Source: Actinomycetota bacterium
GTDB lineage: Bacteria > Actinomycetota > UBA4738 > CALAEC01
NCBI GenBank assembly: GCA_050693155.1
Contig: JBOGWA010000128.1
Span: forward strand, 10,668-74,667
Length of the DNA: 64,000 nucleotides
Reading direction: 5' to 3'
Below are positions 10,774-58,167 of this stretch, piece by piece. Positions within the stretch are counted from its first letter, which is position 1, and every line of letters starts with the position of its first letter. Under the pieces are notes generated by a model. The model had not been told where the DNA came from. It saw only the letters and a list, made by a program, of their open reading frames with translations, and made no database searches. The position numbers were made by a program, and so were the translations under genes.

Positions 10774-10776
10774 CGG

Positions 10777-11505: not shown

Positions 11506-11595
11506 AGCTTGCCTCCTTGAGGGGCGTCGGAACCCTCTCTCTATCCGACGTTCGGACGTCGTGTTCGGCTTAGGTGACGAGGAATCCTGCGGGAC

Positions 11596-20861: not shown

Positions 20862-20865
20862 CTTC

Positions 20866-22921: not shown

Positions 22922-22990
22922 CGCGTCTCCGAGAACAAGGCGGCGCCGGGGGGTGGGGACCGGCGCCGCCAATGCTCGTGCGAGTCCGTC

Positions 22991-28395: not shown

Positions 28396-28401
28396 CAGGC
28401 C

Positions 28402-30051: not shown

Positions 30052-31595
30052 TGGAGCGGACCGGCGGCCGCCGCGGCGGTGTCCACGAGGGCTCCGGTTC
30101 GGACGATCTCGGTCGACTCGGAGATGTCGATGGAGAGGTCGCGGTCTTCCTCCAAAAATGGCACTCGCTCCCGGAGGGCATTCAGGGCCCCCATGGTCCC
30201 CGGGGCCGGCTCCAGCGGCTTCCTGAGGTCGATCGCCTGCGCGGCGCACAGGGCCTCGATCGCGAGGATCGTCCCGACCAGTTCGACGACGCGCCGGAGC
30301 TTCAGGCCCGCGAGCCAGCCCATGCTCACGTGGTCTTCTTGCGTACCGGACGTCGGGATCGAGTCGAGGCTCGCCGGCTGCGCGAGCAGCTTGCACTCGG
30401 AGACCAGCGCGGCCTGCGTGTACTGAGCGAGCATGTAGCCCGATCCAAGCCCCGGCGTCGTCGAGAGGAAGGGAGGAAGCCCCCGCGCCGCCCCCGGTCC
30501 GAGGAGCCAGAGTGTTCTTCGTTCGGAAATGTTGCCGATTCCGCAGAGGGCGACGGCCATGAAGTCGAGCGCGTAAGCGAGGGGCTGACCGTGAAAGTTC
30601 CCGGTGCTCTCGACGCGACCGTCGGGAAGGACGACAGGATTGTCGACCACGGATTCGAGCTCCCGGGCGAACACCTCGGCGGCGAAGGCGAGGGTGTCCC
30701 GACCCGCTCCGTGCACCTGTGGTGCGCACCGCATCGAGTACGCGTCCTGGACCGCATGCTCGCTCTCGGAGTGCGAAGCGATGATCGAGCTTCCCTCAAG
30801 GAGGCGGCGGATGTTCTCGGCCGACGCGCTCTGTCCGGGGTACGGGCGGAGCAGGTGCAGGTCCTCCGCGAACGGACCGTCCGTTCCCAGAGCGCCCTCG
30901 ATCGTCATCGCCGCGGTCACGTCGGCGGTGGAAGCCAGGAGCGCCGCATCGTGGTGAGCAAGCAAGCCGAGAGCGAGCATCCCGTCGGTCCCGTTTACGA
31001 GCGCAAGTCCCTCCTTCGGCTGGAGGCTGAGGGGCTCGAGGCCGGCTCGTTTGAGGGCCGAGTCCGTGGGTTCTGTTCCGGTACGAGCGTGGAGCACCCG
31101 CCCCTCTCCGATCAGGACGAGCGCGATATGGGCGAGCTGGGCGAGATCGCCGCTGGCGCCCACCGAACCGCGATCCGGCACGGCCGGGTGGATTCGCTCG
31201 TTCAAGAGCTCCACGAACCTCGTGACAACGTCGGGACGCACGCCGGAGAACCCGGCGGCAAGGGTTCGCGCCCGGAGGAGCATCATCGCCCGGACCACTT
31301 CCGCAGGCAGGAGATCTCCTGTTCCGGTCGCGTGGCTTCGGATCAGGTTCTGCTGGAGCCGGTCGAGGTCGTCGGGATCGATGCGGACGTCGGCGAGAGC
31401 CCCCAAACCGGTCGTGAGCCCATAGATCGCCTCGCCGCTCGCCACGTGGTCCTCGACGAGCTTTCGGGATCTCCCCATGGAGGGGACAACTTCCGGATCG
31501 AGCGAGACGCGCGCGCCGTCTCGAGCCACGGCGAGCACGTCGCCCGCACCCAGCGGTCCGCCGTCGATGACCACCTCCGCACGCCGGTCCGCCAT
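30048..31595 (-). CDS. hutH: Histidine ammonia-lyase
   Basis: 515 aa. The MIO-forming ASG triad (SVGASGDL) and an aromatic ammonia-lyase fold. Confidence 0.9.
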
Positions 31596-33396: not shown

Positions 33397-34803
33397 GTGA
33401 GCGAGCGGTTCGACCTCGTCGTTCTCGGTTCCGGGCCGGCCGGCGAGAAGGGGGCGGCCCAGGCCGCCTACGTCGGGAAACGGGTCGCCGTCGTCGACAT
33501 TGGGCCCAACCCCGGCGGGGCCGCGGTCAGACTGGCCGTGATCCCTTCCAAGACCCTCCGCGAGACGGCCCAGTATCTGACCGGCTTTCGTCGCCGGAAC
33601 GTCTACGGCGTCAGCCTGTCGCTCGATCCCGGCGCTGCCCTCGCGCGGCTCATGGCCCGCAAGGCGATGGTCGTCGAAACGATGACCGAAGCCGTGCGCA
33701 GGAACTTCGAACGCCACGGCGTCGAGTTCGTAGTGGGAACGCCTACCGTGGAGCCGGGACCGGCGGTCAAAGTCGCCAACACCGATGGCGATCGCGTGCT
33801 CGAGGCGTCCGCTGTGCTCGTCGCAACCGGCGCCCGCCCCTATCACCCACCGGATGTTCCGTTCGAGGATCCCGACGTCCACGACTCCGAGGGGATTCTG
33901 ACCATCGATCGCATCCCCGGCTCGATCGTCGTTGTCGGCGGCGGAGTGATCGGCTGTGAGTACGCCTCCGTATTCGCCGCCCTCGGAGCCGATGTGACCC
34001 TGGTCCATGCAGGTCCCCGCATCCTTCCATTCGCCGACCAGGAGATCTCGGAGTCGCTCGCCATGACGTTCGAGAGCTTTGGCATGAGTGTCGCCACCGG
34101 AACGCGCGCCGACTCTATCGAGCGACGCGATGGAGCCCTAACAGTGAATCTGGCCGGTGGCCGGTCGATCGCTGCCGAGAAGGTGCTCTTCTCCCTCGGG
34201 CAGGTTGGGAACACCGAAGGCTTGGGGCTCGAGGCGCTCGGTGTCGATGTCGACGATCGGGGCCGAGTGCTCGTGGACGAGCACTATCGCTCGACCGTCG
34301 ATGGGATCTATGCAGCGGGCGACGTCATCGGGCCTCCGGCCCTCGCTTCCGTCTCCATGGAACAGGGGAGGGTCGCGATGTGTCACGCGTTCGACATCCC
34401 TTTCAAGGCGTATGTGGATCCGCTAGCGCCGATGGGGATCTACACGATCCCCGAAGTCGCGATGGTGGGCCTTACCGAGTCGGACGCCCGGGAGCGAGGA
34501 CTGGACATCGAGACTGGTAGGGGACAGTTTGAGGCGAATCCGCGCGCGCAGATCACCGGCATGACCGATGGGCTCATCAAGCTCGTCTTCCGCCGGAGCG
34601 ACCGGGTGATCGTGGGTGCTCACATCTTGGGGGAAATCGCGACCGAGCTGATCCACATCGGGCAGGCGGCGATCGCCGACGAGCATCCGATCGACCGGTT
34701 CATTGATGTGACGTTCAACGTCCCGACGCGTGCCGATGCCTTCAAGTACGCGGCGTATGACGGTCTCCAGCGCCATGGAGCCGCTATTCCCGAGGGGAAC
34801 TAG
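33397..34803 (+). CDS. sthA: Soluble pyridine nucleotide transhydrogenase (FAD/NAD-disulfide-oxidoreductase fold)
   Basis: 468 aa. FAD motif GSGPAGE, the VIPSKTLRE motif shared with SthA, a second Rossmann motif VGGGVIGCEYAS, and a C-terminal dimerisation domain. Confidence 0.8.
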   Translation: MSERFDLVVLGSGPAGEKGAAQAAYVGKRVAVVDIGPNPGGAAVRLAVIPSKTLRETAQYLTGFRRRNVYGVSLSLDPGAALARLMARKAMVVETMTEAVRRNFERHGVEFVVGTPTVEPGPAVKVANTDGDRVLEASAVLVATGARPYHPPDVPFEDPDVHDSEGILTIDRIPGSIVVVGGGVIGCEYASVFAALGADVTLVHAGPRILPFADQEISESLAMTFESFGMSVATGTRADSIERRDGALTVNLAGGRSIAAEKVLFSLGQVGNTEGLGLEALGVDVDDRGRVLVDEHYRSTVDGIYAAGDVIGPPALASVSMEQGRVAMCHAFDIPFKAYVDPLAPMGIYTIPEVAMVGLTESDARERGLDIETGRGQFEANPRAQITGMTDGLIKLVFRRSDRVIVGAHILGEIATELIHIGQAAIADEHPIDRFIDVTFNVPTRADAFKYAAYDGLQRHGAAIPEGN

Positions 34804-35276
34804 GGTTCCTGGACGAGCTCGACGAGGACCCCGCCGAAGCCCTTCGGGTGGACGAACGCCACCTTCGTGCCCCGCGAACCCGGCCGCGGCTCCTGGTCGA
34901 CGAGTGAGATTCCCTCCTCCTTGAGGCGCTCGAGGGCGGCCCGGATGTCCGTCACCCGGTATCCCACGTGGTGGACGCCCTCTCCGCGCTTGGCGAGGAA
35001 TCTCCCGACGGGCGTGTCCGGCCCGAGCGAGCGCAGGAGCTGAATGTAGGAGGTCCCGATCTTGAAGAGGACCTCTTCCACGCCTTGATCCTCGATCGTC
35101 TCCCGGTGTGCAGGTTCCACGCCGAACGAGCGCCGGTATCGCTCGACCGCGGCCTCGAGGTCGGCGACCGCGATGCCGACGTGATCGATGCCGTCAAGCA
35201 CGCTGTGCCTCTGTTCTGCGGCGCCGCCCGGGGCTCGGCTCCGGCTGGAGGGATTGTTGTGAATCATGACAATCAT
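34800..35276 (-). CDS. mce: Methylmalonyl-CoA epimerase (VOC/glyoxalase family)
   Basis: 158 aa from the ATG at complement 35274..35276; the track ORF is extended by 258 aa. Motifs IDHVGIAV and HHVGYRV. Its stop overlaps the sthA stop (convergent). Confidence 0.7.
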   Translation of the reverse strand: MIVMIHNNPSSRSRAPGGAAEQRHSVLDGIDHVGIAVADLEAAVERYRRSFGVEPAHRETIEDQGVEEVLFKIGTSYIQLLRSLGPDTPVGRFLAKRGEGVHHVGYRVTDIRAALERLKEEGISLVDQEPRPGSRGTKVAFVHPKGFGGVLVELVQEP

Positions 35277-35423
35277 ATCGCCGTGTCCGAATGGCGCTTC
35301 GTGTCCGCATGCAGCCTTCACGGCAGCGCAGGTGTCCTGATTCGGCCGTCGAACCTTCGATCGATGGGCATGACCGGTAGCGCGAATTGGCGTCATCCGG
35401 CAGACTGTGCACCCCGTATCGAG

Positions 35424-37259
35424 ATGAGTCCGACGACCACGAGCTCCGTCGCAGCCACCCTCGGCCAGTCGAGGCTGCTCGCGGTCGGCAAGGCCGACGT
35501 TGCGAGAATCCGCGCGAAGACGCGCCGGCGCCGCATCGTTCGGTTCCTCGTGATCTTCGGTCTTGTCGACGGCTATCTCTGGTACCGCTACCTCTCGGGG
35601 AACCCGATCGGCCCGCCGAGCCTCCCAGCCGACGCGGTCCTCTGGCTCCCGGCGCTTCTCTTGATTGTGCTCCTGGGCGTGCTGATCCTGCTGCCGATGA
35701 TCGGGAGCGGCCGCTCGCCCCACTCCCTCGTGCGACCTGAGCAGATCGACGTGGGCCTCGAAGAATTGAAGGGCCTGGACCCGCAGGTCGATGAGGTCAT
35801 TCGAAGCCTGAACGTCTTCCTCGGCCACGTGACCTTCCGGGAACGGCTCGGTGGGACCCCTCGCCGAGGGATCCTCTTCGAGGGCCCTCCCGGGACCGGG
35901 AAGACGTTCCTCGCGAAGGCGATGGCCAAGCAGGCGGGCGTCCCGTTCCTGTTCGTCTCGGCGCCGGCCTTCCAATCGATGTGGTTCGGGATGACGAACG
36001 CGAAGATCCGAGCGTTCTTCAGGGCGCTTCGCAAGATTGCTCGGCGCCAAGGCGGGGCGATCGGCTTCATCGAGGAGATCGATGCCATCGGAGCCGACCG
36101 AGGCGCGGTAACCGCCACGGCCTCAGCCGACGACAACAGGAGAAGCGTCTCGAGCTTCATCTCACCCGGAGCCGGAGGAATGGTGAACGAGCTGCTGATC
36201 CAGATGCAGTCCTTCGATCAGCCGACGTGGAGGCAGAGGCTGTGGACGCGAATCGTCGAGTGGATCAACGGTTATCTGCCGGAAGGAAAGCGGGTCGAGT
36301 CGGGTCGGCCCGAATACCACAACATCCTGCTGATCGCTGCGACGAATCGCGCGGAGGCGCTCGACCCCGCGCTCGTGCGACCCGGTCGCTTCGACCGCCG
36401 ACTCTACTTCGACCTTCCCACGAAGAAGGGGAGGAGAGATCTCATCGACTACTTCCTCGCCCGAAAGTCGCACGGAGAGGACCTCGAGGGGGAGGAGGCG
36501 CGCGAGCGTCTCGCACACGACACGTTCGGCTACACGCCCGTCGCGCTCGAGCGGCTCTTCGACGAGGCGCTCCTCACGGCCCTCCGCCACGGGCGCGATC
36601 GGATGACCCCTCCCGACGTCTACGAGGCCAAGCTCTCCGAGGAGGTCGGTCTCCGCCAGCCGGTGGTCTACACGCAAGAGGAGAAGGTGACCGTCGCCAC
36701 CCACGAGGCGGGGCACGCGACCGTCGCACACATCCTCGGCACGACCCGCCGGCTCGAGGTGCTCTCGATCATCAAGCGAAGGAAGTCCCTCGGCCTCCTC
36801 GCGCACGCCGATCTGGAGGAGCGCTTCACGAAGTCGCGCTCCGAGCTCGAGGCGCTGGTCGCTATCGCGATGGGTGGCCTCGCGGCCGAAGAGCTCTTCC
36901 TCGGCGAGAGCGGAACCGGGCCCGGGGCCGATCTGGCTGCGGCGACGGAAGTTGCCGCAACGATGGTGGGCGCGCTTGGAATGGCCGGCTCACTCGTGTC
37001 CTACGAGGCGATCGGAGAGAGCGCGATCCAGACGCGAAATCTCGTGGCGAAGGTCCTCGCCGATCCGGATGCAAAACGTCGGGTGGAGCTACTCCTTGAG
37101 AAGCAAAGACAGAAGGCCGTGAGCGTGCTCGAGGAAAACCGGGACATCGTTGAGTCGCTCCGCGACGCCCTTCTCGACCGCGACGAGCTCGTGGGGAACG
37201 AGATCGTCGGCGTGATCGAGGAAGCACTCGGCCGGCGCCCCGTCCTCGTCCTCGACTAG
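35424..37259 (+). CDS. FtsH-like membrane AAA+ ATPase fused to an M41 zinc metalloprotease (divergent paralog)
   Basis: Two N-terminal transmembrane helices, Walker A GPPGTGKTF, Walker B IEEIDAIG, an SRH region, and HEAGHA (HEXXH). I chose the ATG at 35424; an alternative ATG is at 35364. The track ORF from 34968 overlaps mce. Confidence 0.7.
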   Translation: MSPTTTSSVAATLGQSRLLAVGKADVARIRAKTRRRRIVRFLVIFGLVDGYLWYRYLSGNPIGPPSLPADAVLWLPALLLIVLLGVLILLPMIGSGRSPHSLVRPEQIDVGLEELKGLDPQVDEVIRSLNVFLGHVTFRERLGGTPRRGILFEGPPGTGKTFLAKAMAKQAGVPFLFVSAPAFQSMWFGMTNAKIRAFFRALRKIARRQGGAIGFIEEIDAIGADRGAVTATASADDNRRSVSSFISPGAGGMVNELLIQMQSFDQPTWRQRLWTRIVEWINGYLPEGKRVESGRPEYHNILLIAATNRAEALDPALVRPGRFDRRLYFDLPTKKGRRDLIDYFLARKSHGEDLEGEEARERLAHDTFGYTPVALERLFDEALLTALRHGRDRMTPPDVYEAKLSEEVGLRQPVVYTQEEKVTVATHEAGHATVAHILGTTRRLEVLSIIKRRKSLGLLAHADLEERFTKSRSELEALVAIAMGGLAAEELFLGESGTGPGADLAAATEVAATMVGALGMAGSLVSYEAIGESAIQTRNLVAKVLADPDAKRRVELLLEKQRQKAVSVLEENRDIVESLRDALLDRDELVGNEIVGVIEEALGRRPVLVLD

Positions 37260-37319: not shown

Positions 37320-38465
37320 ATGGATTTCAGTCTGACCGAGGAACAAACCCGATTCCGGGAAGAGGTTCTGCGGTTCGCCGAGGCGGAGCTGAACGACGAT
37401 CTGATCCGGCGGGACGCCGACGGAACTTTCTCTCGCGAGGCATGGAAGAAGTGCGCGGCGCTCGGGATCCAGGGAATGCCGGTTCCGCAGGAGTACGGAG
37501 GACTTGCGGCCGACCCGCTCACGATCATGATCGCGATGGAGGCCCTCGGCTACGGGTGTCGGGACAACGGGCTTCTCTTCTCGCTGAATGCGCAGATGTG
37601 GTCTTGCGAGGTCCCGCTCGTAAAGTTCGGAACCGAGGAGCAGAAGCGCCGGTACCTTCCTGGGCTCTGCGACGGCTCCCTGATCGGGGTGCAGGCCATG
37701 ACCGAGCCGGAGTCGGGATCGGATGCGTTCGCCTTGCGAACCACGGCCGTGAAGAAGGACGGCGTCTATGTTCTCAATGGCTCGAAGACCTTCGTGACGA
37801 ACGCGCCCCTGGCCGACGTGTTCGTCGTGTTCGCGACGGCCGATCAGGCGAGGGGGAGCGCCGCCATCTCGGCCTTCCTTGTCGATGCGGAGACGCCGGG
37901 ACTCTCCCGAGGACGTCCGTTCGACAAGATGGGGCTTCGAACCTCGCCGATGAGCGAAGTCGCCCTTTCGGACTGTGAAGTGCCCGAGGAGGGCCTTCTT
38001 GGACGCCCGTACGCGGGCATGGCGATCTTCAACTCCTCGATGCAATGGGAGCGAGCCTGCATCTTGGGGACGACGGTCGGGACGATGGAGCGCCTTCTCG
38101 AGCGTTCGATCTCTCACGCTCGCTCGCGGCGCCAGTTCGGAAAGTCCATTGGCAAGTTCCAGGGAGTCTCGCATCGGATCGCCGACATGAAGGTCCGCCT
38201 CGAGTGCGCCCGCCTCCTTCTGTACCGCCTCGGATGGCTGATGAACGAGGGGCGGGCGAGCCCGCTCGATTCGGCGATGACAAAGGTGTTTCTGTCCGAG
38301 AGCTTGGTCCAAACGAGCCTCGACGCGCTTCAGATCCACGGGGGATACGGCTACATGCGCGAGTACGAGCTCGAACGAGAGGTACGGGACGCGATCGCGG
38401 GCCGAATCTACTCGGGGACATCGGAGATCCAGCGAAACATCATCGCCGGCTTTCTGGGCTTGTGA
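37320..38465 (+). CDS. Acyl-CoA-dehydrogenase-family flavoprotein; by context a candidate aminoacyl-S-carrier-protein dehydrogenase (PltE/RedW/AnaB-like)
   Basis: 381 aa. ACAD fold with C-terminal YSGTSEIQRNIIA. Its stop overlaps the GTG of the downstream adenylation enzyme (GTGA). Confidence 0.8.
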   Translation: MDFSLTEEQTRFREEVLRFAEAELNDDLIRRDADGTFSREAWKKCAALGIQGMPVPQEYGGLAADPLTIMIAMEALGYGCRDNGLLFSLNAQMWSCEVPLVKFGTEEQKRRYLPGLCDGSLIGVQAMTEPESGSDAFALRTTAVKKDGVYVLNGSKTFVTNAPLADVFVVFATADQARGSAAISAFLVDAETPGLSRGRPFDKMGLRTSPMSEVALSDCEVPEEGLLGRPYAGMAIFNSSMQWERACILGTTVGTMERLLERSISHARSRRQFGKSIGKFQGVSHRIADMKVRLECARLLLYRLGWLMNEGRASPLDSAMTKVFLSESLVQTSLDALQIHGGYGYMREYELEREVRDAIAGRIYSGTSEIQRNIIAGFLGL

Positions 38466-40051
38466 CCGACTCCCTCCCCGCGGTTCTCGAAACGGCGACC
38501 GAGGCCAACCCCCAGAGGCTTGCGGTTGCCGATTCCCGTCTGTCCATGACCTATGCGGACCTGGAGCGTCAGGCGAATCGGCTGGCGCACCTTCTCAGGG
38601 ATCTCGGGGTGAAGAAAGGTGACCGCGTCGGTGTCTACCTCGAGAAGTCGTGCGAATCGCTCGTCGGTGTCTACGGGGCGATGAAGGCGGGGGCTGCGTA
38701 CGTCCCCCTCGACCCGTTCAGCCCGGCGAAGCGGCTCGCCTACATCGGTCGAGACTGCGGTATCCGAACGCTCTTGACTGGAGCGGAAATGGCCGAGACC
38801 TGGCCGGCGCTCATCGCCGAGGGGGCGGCGATCGACCATCTGGTGGTGCTGAACGAGCCCGAGGGACGCCTTCCCGGCGAGATTTCCGGCCCCCGCGGAA
38901 TCGGGACTGCGTCGCTGCTCGAGATGCCGGACGCGCCTCCAACGCACCCGCCGGGCGACGGGGATCTCGCCTACATCCTCTACACGTCGGGGTCGACGGG
39001 GAACCCGAAGGGGGTGATGCTCACCCACCGAAATGCGCTCGCATTCGTTGAGTGGGCCGCCTCGGAGTTAGCGCTGACGCCCGAGGATCGGCTCTCGAGC
39101 CACGCTCCGCTGCATTTCGACCTGTCGATCTTCGACCTGTTCGCAGCCGCCCGAGCTGGAGCTTCGCTTTGCCTCGTCCCGAGCGAAGTGGCGCTCTTTC
39201 CTGTCCAGCTTGCCGCCTGGATCGACGAGCAGCAGATTTCGGTTTGGTATTCGGTGCCCTCCGCCCTCTCCATGCTCGTCGATCGAGGGAGGCTCGAGCC
39301 GGGTGCGTTCCCCCGTCTTCGCACCGTGCTGTTCGCTGGCGAGGTCTTCCCGAAGAAGTTCCTCCGTCGGCTCATGCAGCTTGTGCCGCATGCACGCTTC
39401 TACAACCTGTACGGACCGACCGAGACCAACGTGTGCACGTTCCATGCCGTGCGCTCCTCGGAGGTTGACGATTCGTCCGAGATCCCGATCGGGAAGGCGA
39501 TCAGCGATGTCGAGGTCTTCGCGGTAACCGAGCGAGACCGTGTTGCGGCTCCGGGTGAGGTGGGTGAGCTCTTCGTTCGGGGCCCGAGCGTGATGCAAGG
39601 CTACTGGGGAGATACCGAACGGACCGCCCGGGTGCTCGTTTCGAATCCGATCGATCGAGCTTCGCGGGATCTCGTCTACCGAACGGGTGACCTCGTGCGG
39701 CTGGAGCGGGACGGAAACTATTCCTTCCTGGGTCGCCGTGATGCGCAGATCAAGAGCCGTGGGTACCGCATCGAGCTTGGTGAGATCGAGAGTGTGTTGA
39801 ACGCGCATCCGGCAGTACTTGAGTCGGCCGTCGTCGCGGTCCCGGATGAGCTGCTGACGAACAGGATCAAGGCCTTCGTCGTCGCCGGCCAGAAAGTCCC
39901 TGCCGGGGATCTCGCGCGCTTCTGCGTCGAGCGGATTCCCCGCTACATGGTGCCAGAAGAGTTCGAGTTCCTCTCGCGACTTCCGAAGACATCAACGGGC
40001 AAGATCGACCGCCAGGCCCTTCGTCCCCAGGAGTCCTCTAACCCGGCATAA
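38462..40051 (+). CDS. Free-standing amino-acid adenylation enzyme (NRPS A-domain; candidate L-prolyl-AMP ligase)
   Basis: 530 aa from the GTG at 38462; the track ORF has a 139-aa extension. Core motifs A3 LAYILYTSGSTGNPKG, A4 FDLS, A5 NLYGPTE, A7 YRTGDL, A8 GRRDAQIKSRGYRIELGEIE and A10 PRYMVP...TSTGKIDR. By-eye Stachelhaus code D-L-F-Y-L-A-L-V-C-K. Confidence 0.85.
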   Translation: MTDSLPAVLETATEANPQRLAVADSRLSMTYADLERQANRLAHLLRDLGVKKGDRVGVYLEKSCESLVGVYGAMKAGAAYVPLDPFSPAKRLAYIGRDCGIRTLLTGAEMAETWPALIAEGAAIDHLVVLNEPEGRLPGEISGPRGIGTASLLEMPDAPPTHPPGDGDLAYILYTSGSTGNPKGVMLTHRNALAFVEWAASELALTPEDRLSSHAPLHFDLSIFDLFAAARAGASLCLVPSEVALFPVQLAAWIDEQQISVWYSVPSALSMLVDRGRLEPGAFPRLRTVLFAGEVFPKKFLRRLMQLVPHARFYNLYGPTETNVCTFHAVRSSEVDDSSEIPIGKAISDVEVFAVTERDRVAAPGEVGELFVRGPSVMQGYWGDTERTARVLVSNPIDRASRDLVYRTGDLVRLERDGNYSFLGRRDAQIKSRGYRIELGEIESVLNAHPAVLESAVVAVPDELLTNRIKAFVVAGQKVPAGDLARFCVERIPRYMVPEEFEFLSRLPKTSTGKIDRQALRPQESSNPA

Positions 40052-40059
40052 TTGGTCCC

Positions 40060-40341
40060 GTGACGCTCGCGCCCCGCATCCTCGAATTCGTGAAGAACGA
40101 AGTGCTCGTAGAGGATCACGAGATGCCGATCTCCGACGACACCCCACTGCTTCGCGGCCTCGTGGACTCTGTCAACCTGTTTCGGCTCGTCGCGTTCTTG
40201 GAGGAGGAGTTCGATATCGAGATCGACGAGCTGGAGATCACCGCTGAGAACTTCGGCACGATCGCCGACATCGCGCGCCTGGTGGACCGGACGCGTCGTG
40301 ACACGCCAGAACAGTCTGACCCCGGTTCCCCGTCTACGTAA
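40060..40341 (+). CDS. Small peptidyl/aminoacyl carrier protein (type II PCP, DltC/PltL-like)
   Basis: 93 aa, GTG start. Phosphopantetheine-attachment motif GLVDSVNLFRLV and an acidic helical protein. Confidence 0.75.
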   Translation: MTLAPRILEFVKNEVLVEDHEMPISDDTPLLRGLVDSVNLFRLVAFLEEEFDIEIDELEITAENFGTIADIARLVDRTRRDTPEQSDPGSPST

Positions 40342-40375
40342 AAGCCAGGCCAGCCAACGCGTCCGAAGGGTTTCT

Positions 40376-41065
40376 TCACGGCTCCCTGCGGAACAGGACG
40401 TAGACCATGTCGACGTGTTTCCTGCCGAGCGGGTACCGGATCTTCTGAACGGCAAGGGTTTTCAGGGTGGGCGCGGCGAGGTCTGGAAGCAGGGACTCCA
40501 AGGGCGCCTCGTTTCGGAGAAAGCGTCTGATGAGGGTTCGAACGACGGGAACGGGAATCCTGTTGATGCGCCCGAGTCGCGCACAGTACAGCTGAAACAA
40601 GCCTCCCGGCCTGAGGAGCCGGCAAACGGCCTCGAAATAGTCGGGCCACTCCGAGGGCGGAACGTGGTGGAGACATCCTCGGTCGAACACGAACGTGAAC
40701 GTGCCGTCTTTGAAGGGGATCCGCGGCGCCTCTGCAACGAGATATGAGACCTTCCCACCGACCGTGCCGTTGGCTTCCCTGGCCTGCATGAGCGCGCCAA
40801 TGGCCACGTCGAGGCCGACGACCCGCTCTAGATGGCGCCCCAGGTAGTTCGTCACGACTCCGGAACCGCAGCCAACATCGAGCGCGAGACCCTGTGGCAG
40901 CTCGCGACTCTCCTCGAGGAGCCGAAGCTCTGGGGGCGGCTCGGCAAGGTACCACCCGAACTCTGAAGCGCGCCTCCTTGACCATTCGACTTCCCAGTGT
41001 CCCCGCTGTTCGCTGGGCCCCGGCGGTCCCTGACTGTTCCGCTCTTCTGGATGGCTCGAGATCAA
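40376..41065 (-). CDS. Class I SAM-dependent methyltransferase
   Basis: SAM-binding motif LDVGCGSGV plus post-I/II motifs. I propose a TTG start at complement 41063..41065, overlapping the stop of the upstream thioesterase (TTGA). The track ORF is 117 aa longer. Confidence 0.6.
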   Translation of the reverse strand: MISSHPEERNSQGPPGPSEQRGHWEVEWSRRRASEFGWYLAEPPPELRLLEESRELPQGLALDVGCGSGVVTNYLGRHLERVVGLDVAIGALMQAREANGTVGGKVSYLVAEAPRIPFKDGTFTFVFDRGCLHHVPPSEWPDYFEAVCRLLRPGGLFQLYCARLGRINRIPVPVVRTLIRRFLRNEAPLESLLPDLAAPTLKTLAVQKIRYPLGRKHVDMVYVLFRREP

Positions 41066-41532
41066 ACCGGGGCTCCGGGAGTCGCCTCTTCTTCGGCCAC
41101 CACGGGCTCGGCGAGGGAGGCGCGGCGGCCGGGGAGGATCATCGAGGTGCCGACCGCCGCCGCGACCCGCTTTCCTTCGGCGTTCACGACCTCGCAGACC
41201 GCGGTCGCGAGGGTCTTCCCTCGATGGTCGATCGTCGCCCTCGCCTCGAGGTCTCGGCCGTCGGGTTCCACGGGACGGAAGAAGTTCATCTTGATGTCGA
41301 GTGGGGCGAAGGCCGTTCCGGCAGGCACCGTTGTCAGGACGGCGCCCTGCATCGCGAGTTCCGCGACGAACACGATCGCGCCGCCCTGGACACGCCGGAG
41401 AGGTGAGTTGAGCCACTCGGTCGTGGGAAGTGTCTGCGTGGCCCTCCCTTCCTCAGCATCAACCGGGCGAGATCCCGTGAGGTAGTAGAGCGGGGGAGCC
41501 GGCAACCTTCCGTCGATCCATTCTTGCATCAT
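41062..41532 (-). CDS. Hotdog-fold thioesterase (PaaI/4HBT-like)
   Basis: 156 aa. Contains VQGGAIVFVAELAMQG, a hotdog core. It overlaps the upstream paralog by 74 nt, so the start is uncertain. Confidence 0.6.
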   Translation of the reverse strand: MMQEWIDGRLPAPPLYYLTGSRPVDAEEGRATQTLPTTEWLNSPLRRVQGGAIVFVAELAMQGAVLTTVPAGTAFAPLDIKMNFFRPVEPDGRDLEARATIDHRGKTLATAVCEVVNAEGKRVAAAVGTSMILPGRRASLAEPVVAEEEATPGAPV

Positions 41533-42172
41533 CTGGAGACCGCTCCATGCGGTCCCACACCTCCTGCGGGATCGGCTCGCCCATCACCGGGCGCTCCCAC
41601 GGATCGGGCGTGTCGTAGGAAGGAATCTCCGGCGCGTAATCATCCGGCGGAGGGTCGGGCGCCGGATCGAGCGGCGGGAAGACGTAACAACGGGAGGTCC
41701 CGTGCGCCAGCATCCGCTCGTGCTCGTCGTAGAGGAACGTTTCCGAGAGGCCGATCGAGCGTCCGACGTGGATCAATTGCCCGTGCGCGGAGATCCGACC
41801 GCTCCGGACCGTGGCCGGCCGAAGAAACGTCATCGAGAGTTCCGCCGTCGTGTACGCGGTCGCAGGCGGAAGGGCCGAATGGACCGCCGTGCCGAGCGGG
41901 GCGTCGGCGAGCATGGCGAGGACCCCACCCGGAATGACGCCCGCGGGAGATTGGAGCCACGGACTCGCCGGCATCGAAAACGCTGACGTGCCCTCGCCTA
42001 TCTGGTCGAACCAGATGCCGATGAGATGAGAGACCGGCGGTCGCGGTCCGAGGAACTTGAGCCCGGTGCGGAGCTGCTCCAACCCCGTGAGGCCGAAAAG
42101 GCGTAGGTCGCCGTATCCGCCCCGCGCCGGCTCGCTCGTCGCGATGGGCTCCGGGAAGGGCGATGGACTCAT
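41459..42172 (-). CDS. Hotdog-fold thioesterase (PaaI/DUF4442-like), tandem paralog
   Basis: GVIPGGVLAMLADAPLG motif. I chose the ATG at complement 42170..42172; the track GTG is at 42187. Confidence 0.6.
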   Translation of the reverse strand: MSPSPFPEPIATSEPARGGYGDLRLFGLTGLEQLRTGLKFLGPRPPVSHLIGIWFDQIGEGTSAFSMPASPWLQSPAGVIPGGVLAMLADAPLGTAVHSALPPATAYTTAELSMTFLRPATVRSGRISAHGQLIHVGRSIGLSETFLYDEHERMLAHGTSRCYVFPPLDPAPDPPPDDYAPEIPSYDTPDPWERPVMGEPIPQEVWDRMERSPDDARMDRRKVAGSPALLPHGISPG

Positions 42173-42224
42173 GCGTGAGGAACCCACTTGGGGCCGACTG
42201 TCGGCCGAGCTAGTGAGCCTTCCC

Positions 42225-42932
42225 TCAGCTCACGGGTTCGGGGTCGACTGCGGAGAGGAAGCCCCACCAGGCCTCGAGGGCATCCTCGGTGGCGCCAACG
42301 GCGGCTTCCGGCTCGTCCTCCGCGAGTTCCTCGAGCATCGCGCGCTCGGCGCCCGAATGCTCCACATCGAGCCGCTCGTGGACCTCGAAGAACCCCGTGG
42401 TCCGGCCATCATCGATCCCGTAGTGCTTCCGCAGCCCGTCGATCTTCACACGAGAAACGGCCGGCACTTGTGCTTCGTAGGCATGGATCGCGGCGATCCC
42501 GGCAGCGACGGGCTCGCGGGCCGAGGTCCTCCGGTACGTCTCGACCAGCGTTCGCGTGGCCTCGTTTCGCTGCGAAGAGCGGACGTCGTCCCGTCCGACG
42601 CCCATCCCTTCGGCGAACTGGAGCCATAGCTCGGCGTGGTTTTCCTCCCCGTGCTCCTCATCCCACAGGTTCTCCAGCAGATGTTTGCGAACGAGCGGGT
42701 TCTCCGATCTCGAATGGATCGCCGAGAGAAACCGTGGGAATTCCGATTCGAAGGCGTAGTACTGACGGGCGTACTCCTGGATGGCTTCTTTCGGGAGCGT
42801 CCCCGCGTCCCACTTCTTGTAGAGCGGATGGGAAAGCAGATGGCGCTCCTGGATCATGCGATCGATCGTGTCGATGACGGCCACAGCGTCTCCTCCTTGT
42901 ATGTTGTCCGTGGGGCCCCAACAGACTCCCAC
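42225..42932 (-). CDS. CADD-like heme-oxygenase-like di-metal oxygenase (PqqC/TenA fold); homolog of the Chlamydia self-sacrificing p-aminobenzoate synthase
   Basis: 235 aa, GTG start. Aligns along nearly its full length with CADD/CT610 as I recall it. All six metal ligands are conserved (WDEEHGEENH, YEAQ, HERLDVEH). The sacrificial Tyr context (PLYKKW versus TFYVKW) and the Lys in RVKIDGL are also conserved. Confidence 0.75.
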   Translation of the reverse strand: MGVCWGPTDNIQGGDAVAVIDTIDRMIQERHLLSHPLYKKWDAGTLPKEAIQEYARQYYAFESEFPRFLSAIHSRSENPLVRKHLLENLWDEEHGEENHAELWLQFAEGMGVGRDDVRSSQRNEATRTLVETYRRTSAREPVAAGIAAIHAYEAQVPAVSRVKIDGLRKHYGIDDGRTTGFFEVHERLDVEHSGAERAMLEELAEDEPEAAVGATEDALEAWWGFLSAVDPEPVS

Positions 42933-44253: not shown

Positions 44254-45843
44254 GTGACTCTCGCCCGCCCGCTCCGCCGCTTCTTGCCCCTCTTGCTCGC
44301 GGTCCTACTCGTCCTCCCGAATCCAGCAGGAGCGGCGAAGGAACGCGACTGCCTCATCGAGATCGGCGGGGTCCACCTCCAACAAGCGACCATTCGAGAC
44401 ATCCAGAAGGCGCTTGCGACCGGTCGGCTGACGAGTCGCGCGCTGGTCGAGCGCTATCTGGACCGGATCGCCTTCTTCGATACCTCCGGGGCCTCCCTGA
44501 ACTCGGTGCGGGAGCTCCATCCCCAGGCGCTTCAGCAGGCGGCGAAGCTCGATCGCGAACGAGCGGCAGGCAAAGTACGAGGGCCGCTGCACGGCGTCGC
44601 CGTCCTCCTCAAGGACAACATCGGGACCGACGACGTACCCACGACGGCGGGTTCGATCGCGCTTGAGGACAGCATCCCGGAACGAGACGCGTTTCTCACG
44701 GCCCAGCTCCGAGCGGCCGGCGCCATCATCTTGGGAAAGGCGAACCTGTCGGAATTCGCGAACTGGGTGGACCTGTCGATGCCCTCGGGGTACAGCTCGC
44801 TCGGCGGGCAGGTCATCAACCCGTACGTGTTCGGAGCTACCCCCAGCGGTTCTTCCTCAGGTTCGGGCGTGGCCGCTGCGATGGCCCTGGCGACCGTAAC
44901 GGTGGGTACCGAGACGTCCGGAAGCATCATCTCGCCGAGCCAAGCGAACGGCGTCGTCGGCATCAAGCCCACGGTGGGGCTGATCAGCCGGGCGGGAATC
45001 ATTCCGTTGGCCGCGAGCTTCGACACGCCCGGTCCCATGACCCGGAACGTCACGGACGCCGCGATTCTCCTCGGCGCCATGACGGGCGTCGACCCACGCG
45101 ATCCAGCGACGGCCGCGAGCGAGGGTGAGCTTCCCGCGAATGGGGACTACGCGCGGTCCTTGCGACTCTCCGGCCTGAAGGGCGCGAGGCTCGGCTTCGA
45201 TCCGGACGACCGGCCGGGGTTCCAGGGCGACATCTGGGACCGGGCGATGGACGACCTTCGCGCCGCCGGGGCCGAGATCGTCGAGATCGACGGCCTCGAC
45301 AGCCTGTCGCTCGTAGGGCTCACGGAGATCGCGGCGATCCCCAACGAGTTCAAGGCCGGGCTGAACCAGTACCTGGCCGAGGAAGCCGACCCGCCCAGCG
45401 GAGTGCAGACCCTCTCCGACATCATTGCCTTCAACGAGCAACATCCGGACCGGGTGCGATACGGACAGCGGTTGCTCATCGCTTCTGATGCGACCCCGGG
45501 GAACATGACGGTCGGGATTCCGAACCGAGAACTTGCGATCCAGAGCGCTCGCGCCGCGATCGACGCGACATTCCTTCGGTATGAGCTCGACGCGGTGATC
45601 TCGCCGGGCGCGACGTATGTGAACGTGGGTGCGGCAGCCGGTTATCCCACGATCACCGTTCCTGCCGGGGGCGGATTGACCCCGATCAGTCTCTCCTTCC
45701 TTGGCCAGGCGTGGGACGAGCCCGACTTGATTCGGCTCGGCTATGCGTACGAGCAGACGAGCCTACGTCGGGCGCCGCCGACCGCTCTCAACCCCGGACT
45801 CTTTCCGAAAGGATGCAAGCCGCTACGCTCTGCGCGTGGCTGA
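44254..45843 (+). CDS. Amidase-signature-family amidase with an N-terminal signal peptide
   Basis: 529 aa from the GTG at 44254. Signal peptide LLLAVLLVLPNPAGAA, and a GGSSSGSG / Ser-cisSer-Lys signature region. Confidence 0.85.
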   Translation: MTLARPLRRFLPLLLAVLLVLPNPAGAAKERDCLIEIGGVHLQQATIRDIQKALATGRLTSRALVERYLDRIAFFDTSGASLNSVRELHPQALQQAAKLDRERAAGKVRGPLHGVAVLLKDNIGTDDVPTTAGSIALEDSIPERDAFLTAQLRAAGAIILGKANLSEFANWVDLSMPSGYSSLGGQVINPYVFGATPSGSSSGSGVAAAMALATVTVGTETSGSIISPSQANGVVGIKPTVGLISRAGIIPLAASFDTPGPMTRNVTDAAILLGAMTGVDPRDPATAASEGELPANGDYARSLRLSGLKGARLGFDPDDRPGFQGDIWDRAMDDLRAAGAEIVEIDGLDSLSLVGLTEIAAIPNEFKAGLNQYLAEEADPPSGVQTLSDIIAFNEQHPDRVRYGQRLLIASDATPGNMTVGIPNRELAIQSARAAIDATFLRYELDAVISPGATYVNVGAAAGYPTITVPAGGGLTPISLSFLGQAWDEPDLIRLGYAYEQTSLRRAPPTALNPGLFPKGCKPLRSARG

Positions 45844-46291
45844 GCTGAGCCCGAAGCCCGCGTCCGAGTCACAGGTCACTCTCGCCCAGCAGATGGGCAT
45901 CACCGACGCAAACCTCGCCGGGAACGTGCACGGCGGGACGATCATGAAGCTCGTGGACACGGCGGCCGGGCTCGCGGCCTCCAAGCACTGCGGAGGTCTC
46001 GCGGTCACGGCCGCGATGGATGAGATGTCCTTCATCGAGCCGGTCTTTGTCGGTGACGTGGTGACGGTCAAGGCCACCGTAAACGTCGCCTGGAGCACGT
46101 CGATGGAGGTCGGCGTTCGCGTCGAAGCCGAGAACGTTCGAAGCGGCCGGCACACGCACACCTCGAGCGCGTACCTTAGGCCGGCTCTTCGACCTTCTCG
46201 GCGAGCTCGATCGTGCAGGAAGCCTGCCCGCGCTTCTCGAGATACCGCTGGTGATATTCCTCGGCGGAGTAGAAGGTGTCGGCCGGCGTGA
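45836..46291 (+). CDS. Acyl-CoA thioesterase (YciA-like hotdog); the C-terminal ~40 codons look aberrant and may result from a frameshift
   Basis: GTG at 45836 overlaps the amidase stop. Hotdog core [16 protein letters not shown]...RHTHTSSAY. The tail after SSAYL is Arg/Pro-rich and runs antisense into msrA. Confidence 0.5.
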
Positions 46292-48707: not shown

Positions 48708-50075
48708 GTGAGTCCGGGTACCCTTTGCCTGATGTCTGAGCGTAAGCGTACGACCGCGGCCGGCCCGAGCACCACGGCGCCGGGACCTCTCGGGCGGTGG
48801 GATCGAATCATGCTCGTGATCGCCGGCTACCTGACGGCCGCACTCTCCCTCGGCGCCGCGGGCGCGATCGGCTTGCTGAAGTTCACCGAGTCCCAGCTCA
48901 ACCGAGTCGAAGTTTCGGCGCTTTCAAGAGAGTTCAGCGGCCCGGTGAACGTTCTCTTGCTCGGAAGCGACACGCGGGAAGGCCTCACGGAGGAGGAGCA
49001 GCAGCGGAAAGGTAGTCCTGAAGAGGTATCGGGCGTGCGTTCCGACACGATCATCCTCATCAACTTCGACCCTCGCAGGAACCGAGCCGTGATGGTCCAC
49101 TTCCCTCGTGATCTCCGCGTGGAGATCCCCGGGCACGGGGAGGACAAGATCAACGCGGCGCTCAATCTCGGCGGTCCGGATCTGGTCGTGGAGGCGATCC
49201 GGAAGTTCACCGGCCTGCCCATCCACCACTACCTGGAAGTGAACTTCAACGGTTTCCGGGCCCTCGTCGAAGCGATCGGCGGCGTCGATATGTGTGTCGA
49301 CCGACCGCTGTTCGACGAGCTCGCGGAGCTCAACATCCCGCAAGCCGGCTGCTACACGTTCGACGGCGACACAGCACTCGCGTTCGTTCGAGCCCGAAAC
49401 GTCGAGGGAGACCTGATCCCCGACTTCAATCGGATCGCGAGGCAACAGCAGTTCATCCGGGCTCTGCTGAACGAATTCCTCCGGCCGGGGGCGCTGGTTC
49501 GCCTTCCTTCGCTCCTCGGCCTTGCGGCGCGAAACCTCACCACCGACACCGAGCTTGCGGCGACGGACCTGCTCTTCCTCGCGGCGAAGCTCCGCGGGCT
49601 CGCCGAGGCCGACCCCACCGGGGCATCGAATATCGATCTTCGCGTCGTCCCGGGCCTGCCGCAGACCATCGACGAGATCTCCTACGTGATCGCCGTCCAA
49701 CCGGAAACCGAGCGGCTCTTCAAGGCCCTGCGGAACGGGACGGCCCTGGGCAACCTCGGCACGGTTCAGGCGGGAACCCCGACGTCTCCTGCGCTCATCG
49801 GGATCCAGGTGTTGGAGGCTGGAGCCGGTGACGAACAGACCGGGCTCGTCGTCGATCTGCTCCGCCGAGCGGGATTCCTGGTGCTCGGCACGGCGCCGGC
49901 GCCGCCCGAGGAGACCGCAAGCGTGATCATCTACCGGCGGGGGGCCCGGGACCTTGCAGACACCGTCGCCGGCTTCTTCCCGGAGCTGCCGCTTCGTGAG
50001 GGGAGCACGGCCATCCTCCGGGGAGCCGACGTCGCGATCGTCGTCGCCGATGACTTCCGGGGGTTCGAAGGATGA
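48708..50075 (+). CDS. LytR-CpsA-Psr (LCP) family cell-wall glycopolymer transferase with a C-terminal LytR_C domain
   Basis: 455 aa. N-terminal transmembrane anchor, then LCP core (VLLLGSDTR...RSDTIILINFDP...FDGDTALAFVRAR). Its stop overlaps the next gene's ATG (ATGA). Confidence 0.85.
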   Translation: MSPGTLCLMSERKRTTAAGPSTTAPGPLGRWDRIMLVIAGYLTAALSLGAAGAIGLLKFTESQLNRVEVSALSREFSGPVNVLLLGSDTREGLTEEEQQRKGSPEEVSGVRSDTIILINFDPRRNRAVMVHFPRDLRVEIPGHGEDKINAALNLGGPDLVVEAIRKFTGLPIHHYLEVNFNGFRALVEAIGGVDMCVDRPLFDELAELNIPQAGCYTFDGDTALAFVRARNVEGDLIPDFNRIARQQQFIRALLNEFLRPGALVRLPSLLGLAARNLTTDTELAATDLLFLAAKLRGLAEADPTGASNIDLRVVPGLPQTIDEISYVIAVQPETERLFKALRNGTALGNLGTVQAGTPTSPALIGIQVLEAGAGDEQTGLVVDLLRRAGFLVLGTAPAPPEETASVIIYRRGARDLADTVAGFFPELPLREGSTAILRGADVAIVVADDFRGFEG

Positions 50076-51133
50076 AGGCGCTCGTCCTCGCCGGCGGTGA
50101 GGGATCGAGGCTCCGCCCGATCACCCACACGAATGCAAAGCAGCTCATCCCGATTGCGAACAAACCGATTCTGTTCTACGGGCTCGAGGCCATTCGAGAC
50201 GCGGGGATCCGCGAGGTCGGGATCGTGGTCGGAGCGACCGCGGACGAGATCACGGGTGAGGTGGGCGACGGCTCTGCGTGGGGCCTTCGGGCGACCTACC
50301 TTCGCCAGGACTCTCCACGCGGTCTCGCTCACGCCGTCCTGATCTCGCGGGAGTTCTTGGGGGACGAGCCGTTCGTCATGTATCTGGGCGACAACGTCCT
50401 CCTCGAGGGGGTTGCCGGCTTCGTGGAACAGTTCGAAGCCCACCGTCCGAACGCGCAGATCTTTCTTGCCGCGGTGCCGGAGCCGGAACGGTTCGGGGTT
50501 GCCGTGCTCGAAGGCGATCGAGTCGTCCGACTGGTCGAGAAGCCGAAGGAGTACATTTCCGATCTCGCGCTCGTTGGTGTGTATCTCTTCGACCCCTCGA
50601 TTCACCAGGCCGTCGCGTCGATCGAGCCGTCCTCGCGTGGGGAGCTCGAGATCACCGACGCGATTCAGAACTTGATCGATGCCGGGCGCGCCGTGCGCGC
50701 GGAGATCGTCGGCGGCTGGTGGAAGGACACGGGCAAGCTCGAGGATCTCCTCGAAGCGAATCAGATGATGCTTTCGGTACTCGAGCCTCGCGTAGATGGG
50801 GAGGTCGACGAGGACTCAACGCTCGTGGGACCCGTCACGATCGAACCGGGAGCGAAGGTCGTTCGCTCGGTGATCCGCGGGCCCTCGATCATCGGATCGG
50901 ACACCGTGATCGAAGATTCACTCGTCGGTCCCTACGCTTCGGTCTACTTCGGCTGCGAGATCACCGGGAGCCAGATCGAGAACTCCATCGTCATGGAGCG
51001 CTGCCGGGTGGACGGTATCGAAGCGATCGCCGAGTCGCTTGTCGGAAAGAACGTCGAGATCCGCCGCGGAGGTGTCCGACCCGCGATGTACCGGCTGATG
51101 CTCGGCGATCAAAGCCAAGTCGAGGTCTCCTAG
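50072..51133 (+). CDS. rmlA: Glucose-1-phosphate thymidylyltransferase, long form (nucleotidyltransferase plus left-handed beta-helix)
   Basis: 353 aa. N-terminal LAGGEGSRLRPITHTNAKQL signature and C-terminal hexapeptide repeats. Confidence 0.8.
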   Translation: MKALVLAGGEGSRLRPITHTNAKQLIPIANKPILFYGLEAIRDAGIREVGIVVGATADEITGEVGDGSAWGLRATYLRQDSPRGLAHAVLISREFLGDEPFVMYLGDNVLLEGVAGFVEQFEAHRPNAQIFLAAVPEPERFGVAVLEGDRVVRLVEKPKEYISDLALVGVYLFDPSIHQAVASIEPSSRGELEITDAIQNLIDAGRAVRAEIVGGWWKDTGKLEDLLEANQMMLSVLEPRVDGEVDEDSTLVGPVTIEPGAKVVRSVIRGPSIIGSDTVIEDSLVGPYASVYFGCEITGSQIENSIVMERCRVDGIEAIAESLVGKNVEIRRGGVRPAMYRLMLGDQSQVEVS

Positions 51134-51138
51134 ACCCG

Positions 51139-52296: not shown

Positions 52297-52333
52297 ACTT
52301 GAGTGCCCGGCGTCCCCCCACTGGAGTCTCCTG

Positions 52334-53751: not shown

Positions 53752-53816
53752 CTCGCCATGGGTGAGACGCCGGTTCTGGCGGTAGCGAGCGAACCCCCCG
53801 ATCGGAAGGAGAAGCG

Positions 53817-57692: not shown

Positions 57693-57787
57693 GATGGCTT
57701 CGTCGACAACCTGCTCATGAGCATACGAGCCCCCTGGATGTCGACTACGAACCACCCCCGCCGCCGGGGGAGGGGAGGAGAACTCGC

Positions 57788-58159: not shown

Positions 58160-58167
58160 GGCCCTCG

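Follow-up and report, generated by a model that had tools for sequence, protein, structure and literature searches.

Oxidation of proline while it is bound to a small carrier protein is known from several well-described biosynthetic systems, each of which employs a free-standing adenylation (A) enzyme, a carrier protein (CP) and a flavoprotein of the acyl-CoA dehydrogenase (ACAD) family. In the anatoxin-a system of Oscillatoria PCC 6506 (AnaB/AnaC/AnaD), AnaB performs a two-electron oxidation that stops at the (S)-pyrroline-5-carboxyl-acyl carrier protein, which is passed on to the polyketide synthase (PKS) AnaE. PltE, RedW and PigA, the corresponding enzymes of the PltF/PltL/PltE, RedM/RedO/RedW and PigI/PigG/PigA systems, carry the oxidation on to the pyrrole. 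Here we describe a locus with the same three proteins from an uncultured actinomycete (assembly GCA_050693155.1, contig JBOGWA010000128.1, positions 10,668 to 74,667), the whole stretch of 64,000 nucleotides being referred to below as the window. The three plus-strand genes of this triad face a converging minus-strand group that encodes an S-adenosyl-methionine (SAM)-dependent methyltransferase (MT), a double-hotdog thioesterase and an oxygenase-like protein of the CADD family. In our reading, to which we assign a probability of roughly 0.55, the locus consists of two unrelated gene sets lying side by side, namely an accessory prolyl cassette accompanied by the MT and a resident pair made up of the CADD-family and double-hotdog genes.

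Genes were called from third-position G+C and then checked against Pfam and NCBIfam, which gave the following features:

37320-38465, plus strand: ACAD-family gene, whose TGA stop overlaps the GTG start of the A-enzyme gene (GTGA)
38462-40051, plus strand: A-enzyme gene, 529 residues; the NCBI protein (P0031) has the identical start and 529 residues
40060-40341, plus strand: CP gene, 93 residues, beginning 8 nt past the stop of the A-enzyme gene
40376-41065, minus strand: MT gene, whose TTG start overlaps the upstream stop (TTGA); the NCBI protein (P0001) is the same 229 residues
41062-42187, minus strand: double-hotdog thioesterase gene, split in the window into two open reading frames (ORFs), with TIGR00369 matching both halves
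41459-42187 and 41062-41532, minus strand: the two hotdog ORFs, overlapping by 74 nt
41545/41546, minus strand: one-base insertion, an extra G in ATGGAGC, located by DNA alignment with the related contig L161
42225-42932, minus strand: CADD-family gene (TIGR04305), start codon uncertain

The CP gene and the converging MT gene are separated by a gap of 34 nt (40342-40375). A preliminary description of this DNA had given the triad coordinates, the GTGA overlap, the 93-residue carrier, the 34-nt gap and the TTGA start of the MT gene, and all of these were borne out.

Judged from their sequences, the plus-strand genes are predicted to form a prolyl-carrier-protein oxidation cassette of the PltE/F/L or AnaB/C/D type, the architecture that the preliminary description had recognized and that is upheld by the proline code and by the PltF and AnaB matches. 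The closest solved relative of the ACAD-family protein is AnaB (4irn), the best match in the PDB with 445 bits and 50% identity, free of gaps over 380 residues, followed by the Pro-PCP dehydrogenase 5zw0 (330 bits, 44%) and by butyryl-CoA dehydrogenases with 303 bits or less. The NCBIfam models PigA (450.6 bits) and RedW (425.7 bits) come out on top, the next family being AcrC (324.6). By both sets of scores, metabolic acyl-CoA dehydrogenases stand further from the protein than known prolyl-CP dehydrogenases do; it was between these two that the preliminary description had proposed to decide. Glu244, which we take to be the catalytic base of AnaB, is shared and lies in QWER, and the motif YSGTSEIQR is common to both proteins; like AnaB, the window protein has no Glu in YSGTSEIQ at the base position of medium-chain-type dehydrogenases. 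Two-electron and four-electron oxidation by such an enzyme are indistinguishable from sequence.

The A-enzyme exceeds the TIGR01733 cut-off (405.6 against 317.4), and its best single-domain match in the PDB is PltF (6o6e, 'L-proline--[L-prolyl-carrier protein] ligase', 349 bits), with DltA models and structures as strong secondary matches (298.8 bits). The specificity positions were located with a GrsA fragment matched to 1amu residues 234-335, in GrsA-PheA numbering, and the ten-residue codes were taken from alignments with PltF and with 7thn_B, another proline ligase of solved structure. The window code, DLFYLALVCK, is identical at nine of ten positions to that of PltF (DLLYLALVCK); the sole difference, F for L at position 239, recurs in 7thn_B (DLFYIAWVCK). 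The code extraction suggested in the preliminary description thus pointed to proline, as in the anatoxin-a system with its proline-type code, and the enzyme is a predicted L-proline:carrier-protein ligase. A literature search for the literal codes DLFYLALVCK and DLLYLALVCK returned no papers. The third member matches the PP-binding model at 23.4 bits (cut-off 20.8), has the phosphopantetheine-site serine in LVDSVNL, and is 78, 56 and 46% identical to the carriers of L161, L166 and L167, respectively, all three of which adjoin triad genes. At the sequence level, the triad has what distinguishes the AnaB/C/D and PltE/F/L sets, except for equivalog-level scores and an acceptor in the same cluster.

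That missing acceptor is the first point on which the locus departs from the known systems. Pfam scans of essentially all coding ORFs revealed no ketosynthase, condensation domain, halogenase, KAS-III or PKS in the 64-kb window, in agreement with what had been noted before, and no thioesterase-carrier fusion either. With respect to the Plt, Red and Pig systems, the window thus lacks halogenase, ketosynthase and condensation partners, and the gene order ACAD-A-CP and the housekeeping surroundings differ as well; with respect to AnaB/C/D, it has no PKS, comes from an uncultured actinomycete and includes an accompanying MT. The cassette could supply a pyrrolyl or dehydroprolyl starter to a PKS or non-ribosomal peptide synthetase (NRPS) line encoded elsewhere in the genome, this being the classical role of PltE/F/L, RedM/O/W and AnaB/C/D, and homologues in Xenorhabdus/Photorhabdus do have a KAS-III-like gene beside CP, A and ACAD. 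We nevertheless regard this as unlikely, in view of the 64 kb without an acceptor, of the rarity of such split clusters among bacteria, and of the setting of the closest homologues (A-enzyme 60-63%, ACAD 66-72% identical), which is that of glycan loci and not of PKS/NRPS clusters.

These homologues were collected in a scan with the ACAD-family protein, restricted to one genome per species and with 10 kb taken as the neighbourhood, that yielded 80 loci at 43-71% identity. They span Actinomycetota/Acidimicrobiia, Armatimonadota, Chloroflexota, Acidobacteriota, Burkholderiales, Gemmatimonadota, Planctomycetota, Xenorhabdus/Photorhabdus and others. About 65 of these loci have an A-enzyme homologue next to the ACAD gene and about 35 have a CP; among the linked A-enzymes, 24 have the exact PltF code and 15 the exact window code (39 together). 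The family is large, since a protein search with the A-enzyme found more than 7,600 metagenomic homologues at E 1e-100 or better. Genes for surface glycans, such as tyrosine autokinase, NDP-sugar dehydrogenase, GT1/GT4, GNAT and sulfotransferase, surround the triad at all but one of the 15 closest ACAD loci (14 of 15), and L165-L168 likewise carry genes of this kind, Wzm/Wzt or the hydrolase pair included. At the closest loci, the genes directly upstream of the ACAD gene encode a pair of alpha/beta hydrolases similar to 'exosortase A-associated hydrolase 1 and 2' (hydr1/hydr2_PEP-like); the nearest metagenomic A-enzyme homologues (L165, L166) have the same layout, followed by Wzm/Wzt and GT4 genes. 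The closest homologues overall (L165, L166, L167 and L002-L013; ACAD 63-72%, A-enzyme 54-63% identical) have ACAD and A in the order seen in the window and a proline code that is identical or nearly so, and L167 also shares an MT homologue. They differ from it by adding the two hydrolases, often a halogenase-like gene, Wzm/Wzt, GT4 and sulfotransferase, the window cassette being next to none of these and, unlike the glycan-locus subtype, outside any setting of glycosyltransferase, export and chain-length genes. If the subtype is defined by the hydrolase pair, the window cassette lies outside it. No relevant paper emerged from a literature search that paired pyrrole or prolyl cassettes with polysaccharides; its coverage was incomplete, so that it is weak evidence of novelty.

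Several further observations concern the wider family. A gene resembling flavin-dependent halogenases (Trp_halogenase in Pfam, 206 bits to the CmlS model, WxWxIP motif) accompanies the triad in 18 fetched loci, some of them inside polysaccharide clusters (L012:12786-14318, L004-L007, L013, L020, L024-L026, L029, L038, L043, L048, L052, L072, L078 and L167:6643-8004), a hint of halogenated pyrrole units outside classical natural-product clusters. A second layout, seen in about 25 loci of Proteobacteria, Gemmatimonadota, Acidobacteriota, Planctomycetota and others, has a polytopic membrane protein of about 870 residues encoded beside, and usually just upstream of, a CP-A-ACAD set with the PltF proline code (e.g., L019:5206-8169; also L017, L020, L023, L025, L027, L028, L034, L036, L038, L043, L048, L052, L055, L056, L059, L074 and L080). 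Its N-terminal part has no Pfam, NCBIfam or PDB match and carries an invariant WRR.N.YW motif and two invariant His, and a profile of 18 members gave only weak SGNH/GDSL matches for the C-terminus (E 0.007-0.03). This protein may be a candidate Dlt-like polymer acyltransferase; its identification as a DltB-like membrane-bound O-acyltransferase was considered and could not be confirmed by these searches. In Xenorhabdus/Photorhabdus (L046:6975-8102, L047, L051), CP-A-ACAD follow a KAS-III-like gene in the classical pyrrolyl-transfer layout, and the scan thus covers classical as well as non-classical contexts.

Since the window cassette lacks the hydrolase pair, the halogenase-like gene and the DUF3179 gene found with its homologues, it might be thought of as a decaying, inactive remnant of a larger glycan-decoration operon, and the frameshift in the neighbouring hotdog gene could be taken in the same sense. 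We consider this the least probable of the explanations weighed here: all four genes, MT included, are intact with their catalytic motifs, and the ratios of non-synonymous to synonymous substitution (dN/dS), measured against L161/L164 at a synonymous divergence (dS) of about 1, are low, with 0.07 for the ACAD, 0.17 for the A-enzyme, 0.14 for the CP and 0.22 for the MT (0.05-0.11 for housekeeping neighbours). The cassette is thus maintained by selection.

The minus-strand genes have a different history. The CADD-family protein scores 254.7 bits with TIGR04305 (cut-off 200), which confirms the family identity given in the preliminary description, and its PDB matches are CT610 (1rcw, 181 bits) and 8va9 ('4-aminobenzoate synthase'). 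In the Chlamydia enzyme, roles have been assigned to Tyr27, which is sacrificial, to Lys152 and to the metal ligand Glu142 (PMC9522330). The aligned residues of the window protein are Y38, K163 and E153, and because these are kept and the TIGR04305 cut-off is passed, we read the protein as a housekeeping 4-aminobenzoate synthase: a predicted orthologue of the self-sacrificing enzymes described from Chlamydia trachomatis and Nitrosomonas europaea, and a neighbour that lies outside the cassette. Differently from those enzymes, it has no folate genes adjoining it in the window, and the activity in Actinomycetota is predicted only.

Syntenic relatives of the locus were found by a metagenome scan with the CADD-family protein, followed by tblastn with all window proteins; their thiolase (77-80%), FtsH-like (66-71%) and Ccr (76-79%) proteins are closely similar to those of the window. 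In L083, L084, L085 and L092, the CADD-family gene is the only one between thiolase and the FtsH-like gene that converges on it, and triad, hotdog and MT genes are lacking. In L086, the CADD-family and double-hotdog genes are followed about 40 bp on by the FtsH-like gene, again without MT or triad. CADD is thus, and in some lineages the hotdog gene as well, a resident of this convergent gap. Conversely, neither a CADD-family nor a hotdog gene occurs within 10 kb of any of the 80 ACAD loci. These results speak directly to the single pathway that had been put forward for all seven genes of the preliminary description, in which the CADD-like oxygenase would tailor the carrier-bound or released proline-derived unit. 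The genes are adjacent, those for CADD, hotdog and MT are probably co-transcribed, and heme-oxygenase-like dimetal enzymes do tailor natural products, BesC being a weak match to the CADD-family protein (41.5 bits). However, the family score, the retained Tyr27 and Lys152 equivalents, the fixed place beside the thiolase gene in relatives devoid of triad, hotdog and MT, and the absence from every ACAD locus leave this proposal with very little probability, and we do not retain it.

The hotdog gene calls for a correction of the gene count. Two overlapping hotdog thioesterases had been described, and the ORFs and their 74-nt overlap are indeed present; they represent one double-hotdog gene split by an extra G. 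Deletion of one G at 41545/41546 restores a single ORF of 375 residues (41062-42187) whose halves score 61.7 and 52.7 bits with TIGR00369 (cut-off 36.6). No frame change separates the two domains in L161, L086, L089 and L103, where the linker VWDR(R/M)(S/T)GLE connects them, and more than 900 database homologues ('PaaI family thioesterase') are nearly all single proteins of 338-390 residues; in the window, owing to the +1 frameshift, the two domains are not on one polypeptide, and the NCBI annotation of this metagenome-assembled genome has only a 237-residue fragment (P0168). Since the two ORFs are halves of one gene, the minus strand carries three genes and not four. Compared with L161, each half is 87-88% identical and shows dN/dS of 0.06-0.09, no sign of decay, so that the frameshift would be recent, tolerated or an assembly error; a 100% identical contig, L163, begins just downstream of 41545/41546 and does not cover the site.

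The thioesterase also bears on the question of how a cassette product would leave its carrier. In a stand-alone short route, which is the earlier hypothesis minus CADD, the triad would make pyrrolyl- or dehydroprolyl-S-CP, the hotdog enzyme would hydrolyse it and the MT would complete a methylated pyrrole-2-carboxylate-type molecule. The hotdog protein is the only candidate release enzyme near the cassette and is of the PaaI/YbdB (EntH-like) type, some members of which hydrolyse aryl-S-carrier proteins; the hotdog stop and the MT start overlap, L161 preserves the arrangement, and a cassette under purifying selection needs an exit. Hydrolysis of the cassette product is hence chemically plausible for a YbdB/EntH-type enzyme, without comparative support. 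Against such a route, L086 shows the hotdog gene at the site before the cassette, triad loci elsewhere have no hotdog gene, the gene is frameshifted in this assembly, and triad and hotdog-MT operon are on opposite strands. Further contexts of the hotdog gene (L170-L172) are SthA/Ccr/hut, purine/folate and leucine-catabolism genes, in all three cases without triad or CADD. We therefore hold the short route to be doubtful, although less so than the supply of a distant assembly line, and prefer to regard the double-hotdog thioesterase as a member of a widespread, housekeeping-like family that is predicted to be a neighbour of the cassette with no comparative link to it. PDB sequence searches gave only generic family matches and no substrate hint for this protein or for the MT. 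Two more single-domain hotdog thioesterases of the 4HBT type are encoded in the window (11629-12078 and 45743-46291), the second of which is also found in L161 between MsrA and amidase; hotdog thioesterases are thus common in this genome and not special to the surroundings of the cassette.

The MT behaves differently from its two minus-strand neighbours. It is a class I SAM enzyme (TPMT/Methyltransf_25-like in Pfam) whose closest outside homologue, P0002, is encoded in L161, a contig with housekeeping genes 82-91% identical to those of the window. In L161, the genes LCP, Acs, MsrA, 4HBT, amidase and thiolase are followed by CADD, the fused double hotdog, MT and DUF3179, with CP and A-enzyme genes facing them, and L164, from the same sample series, carries FtsH-like, ACAD and A-enzyme genes. 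Syntenic relatives lacking the triad lack the MT as well, whereas L161 has both. The relatives accordingly fall into three states (CADD only; CADD with hotdog; CADD with hotdog, MT and triad, with or without DUF3179), and MT and triad therefore appear together: they were gained jointly in the clade of the window and L161/L164. As to the dependence of the minus-strand operon on the triad, one part of the preliminary description stands, in that the MT co-occurs with the triad, and the other falls, in that CADD and hotdog genes are found without it, the outcome that the description itself had named as a sign of coincidental adjacency. Likewise, the conservation of the whole convergent layout is limited to one close relative (L161/L164), for which shared ancestry is a sufficient explanation.

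Outside this clade, the three nearest MT homologues that were inspected all occur at loci with genes of the triad type. P0005 belongs to the one-strand, tightly packed operon of L167, which encodes CP, halogenase-like protein, MT, two small ORFs, DUF3179, two hydrolases, ACAD and A-enzyme; P0004 is divergent from a hydrolase pair; and P0015 (L168) occurs with a hydrolase pair, a carrier protein and Wzm/Wzt. No clear homologue was found within 10 kb of any of the 80 ACAD loci, one weak match being present in L023 (31% identity over 42% of the query). From the joint gain and the three outside contexts, the MT is probably a tailoring enzyme of the cassette. It is only 53% identical between the window (40376-41065) and L161 (9745-10458), the flanking genes being 87-91% identical (dN/dS 0.22 against 0.05-0.11), and its last ~65 residues cannot be aligned with the L167 homologue, which suggests fast evolution or replacement of the substrate-binding part. 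L161 also has a DUF3179 gene (10697-11548) between MT and CP, where the window has its 34-nt gap. This DUF3179 protein shares 57% identity along its whole length with its counterpart from the L167 cassette operon, so that DUF3179 may be a lost member of the cassette.

Taken together, the locus is best read as an accessory block, triad plus MT, that would descend from glycan-locus cassettes but has neither their hydrolase pair nor their halogenase-like gene nor, in this genome, DUF3179, and that stands beside resident housekeeping genes. Several points weigh against this reading. The ACAD-family protein falls short of both NCBIfam equivalog cut-offs (500 for PigA, 650 for RedW) and hence represents a distinct branch of the clade, equivalog of neither. 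The MT is 52% identical to its L167 homologue over residues 18-163 only, its link to triads comprises three outside contexts and one clade, and its translational coupling to the hotdog gene leaves room for recruitment of the hotdog enzyme. The hydrolase pair is absent from the 64-kb window (tblastn with the pairs of L012 and L167), as are the halogenase-like gene and DUF3179. As the hydrolase pair is missing and the glycan locus of the window is not orthologous to those linked to triads, the adjacent hotdog enzyme is the only candidate left for the exit step. Finally, the activities of the cassette enzymes are predicted ones throughout this branch of Actinomycetota.

Under the two-gene-set reading, the A-enzyme would adenylate L-proline and load it onto the phosphopantetheine arm of the 93-residue carrier, as its code and PltF homology indicate. 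The AnaB/PltE-family flavoprotein would then oxidize prolyl-S-CP, either to delta-1-pyrroline-5-carboxyl-S-CP (two electrons, as AnaB) or to pyrrolyl-2-carboxyl-S-CP (four electrons, as PltE, RedW and PigA), and the MT, by virtue of its co-occurrence, may methylate the heterocycle on the carrier or after release. The unit would exit via an enzyme encoded outside the window. We speculate that it would most likely be handed on to a polymer of the envelope or to some other acceptor further away, given that the cassettes nearest in homology are found among glycan genes of the cell surface, beside the pair of alpha/beta-hydrolase-fold proteins. The CADD-type 4-aminobenzoate synthase and the double-hotdog acyl-thioester hydrolase would already have been in the convergent gap next to thiolase when the cassette came in.

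A bolder and more tentative proposal, possible in our view and clearly less probable than the division into two gene sets, concerns function: triad and MT may be a stripped-down member of a large family of prolyl-CP cassettes that decorate envelope glycopolymers with esters of oxidized proline (pyrrole-2-carboxyl or dehydroprolyl), sometimes halogenated or methylated, and that do not prime PKS/NRPS lines. The transferases would be lineage-specific, the alpha/beta-hydrolase pair in Actinomycetota and the 870-residue membrane protein with its SGNH-like C-terminus in Proteobacteria, Gemmatimonadota, Acidobacteriota and Planctomycetota. The logic would resemble that of DltA/DltC, with a flavoprotein step added: the cassette has a free-standing A-enzyme and a small carrier, and in its relatives the amino acid would be bound for a cell-surface polymer locus. 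The cassette differs from DltA/DltC in its predicted specificity for proline and not D-alanine, in the flavoprotein oxidation, and in that no DltB- or DltD-type protein was identified.

As for the remainder of the window (about 66% G+C), the cassette is flanked by the FtsH-like, CADD, thiolase and amidase genes, the nearest glycan genes beginning 8 kb away, and the wider surroundings are of a housekeeping nature (hut operon, Ccr, SthA, atypical FtsH-like gene, thiolase, amidase, MsrA, Acs). Third-position G+C is 0.76-0.81 in the triad and MT and 0.79-0.87 in the neighbours, so that a foreign origin of the DNA, which was considered, is not clearly signalled. A scan for promoters and terminators detected no signal exceeding shuffled sequences, and Rfam and tRNA scans of the 64 kb gave no match. 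The FtsH-like protein (34968-37259, 763 residues) is atypical: its AAA domain is stretched across 180 residues, Peptidase_M41 is present, about 250 N-terminal residues have no domain match, and the score is 281 against an FtsH equivalog cut-off of 600. Its gene is syntenic (66-71%) in relatives both with and without the triad. Between the Ccr and FtsH-like genes the window has SthA (33397-34803), which L083/L084 lack, a gap of about 170 bp taking its place (L084:12930-13104), and in L170 it is the FtsH-like gene that is absent; in this lineage, the whole stretch from Ccr to thiolase is a hotspot where genes are gained and lost. Elsewhere the window encodes a Tad/Flp pilus locus (15756-22972; TadA/B/C, CpaE-like, RcpC, TadE), the hut operon (27484-31595; HutH, urocanase, arginase-family enzyme), a rhamnose-type wall-glycopolymer locus (48708-60023; LCP, RmlA/B/D, Wzm/Wzt with Wzt_C, GT4, GT2, second NTP-transferase) and an FbiB-like F420 ligase/nitroreductase fusion (62575-63873). 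The glycopolymer locus (48.7-60 kb) was considered as a partner of the cassette and rejected, its Wzm/Wzt and glycosyltransferase proteins not being orthologous to those of L165 (25-47% identity).

The window thus presents a well-known biosynthetic cassette in an unusual, partner-less setting, next to two housekeeping genes that resemble tailoring enzymes, and it teaches caution when gene clusters are called from adjacency. Uncultured Actinomycetota and several other phyla abound in proline cassettes with a code of the PltF type, and in these organisms the cassettes lie in surface-polysaccharide loci and not in PKS/NRPS clusters. If acylation of the cell envelope with pyrrole or dehydroproline proves true, it would constitute a new class of cell-surface modification and give a new role to a chemistry so far known only from antibiotics and toxins.

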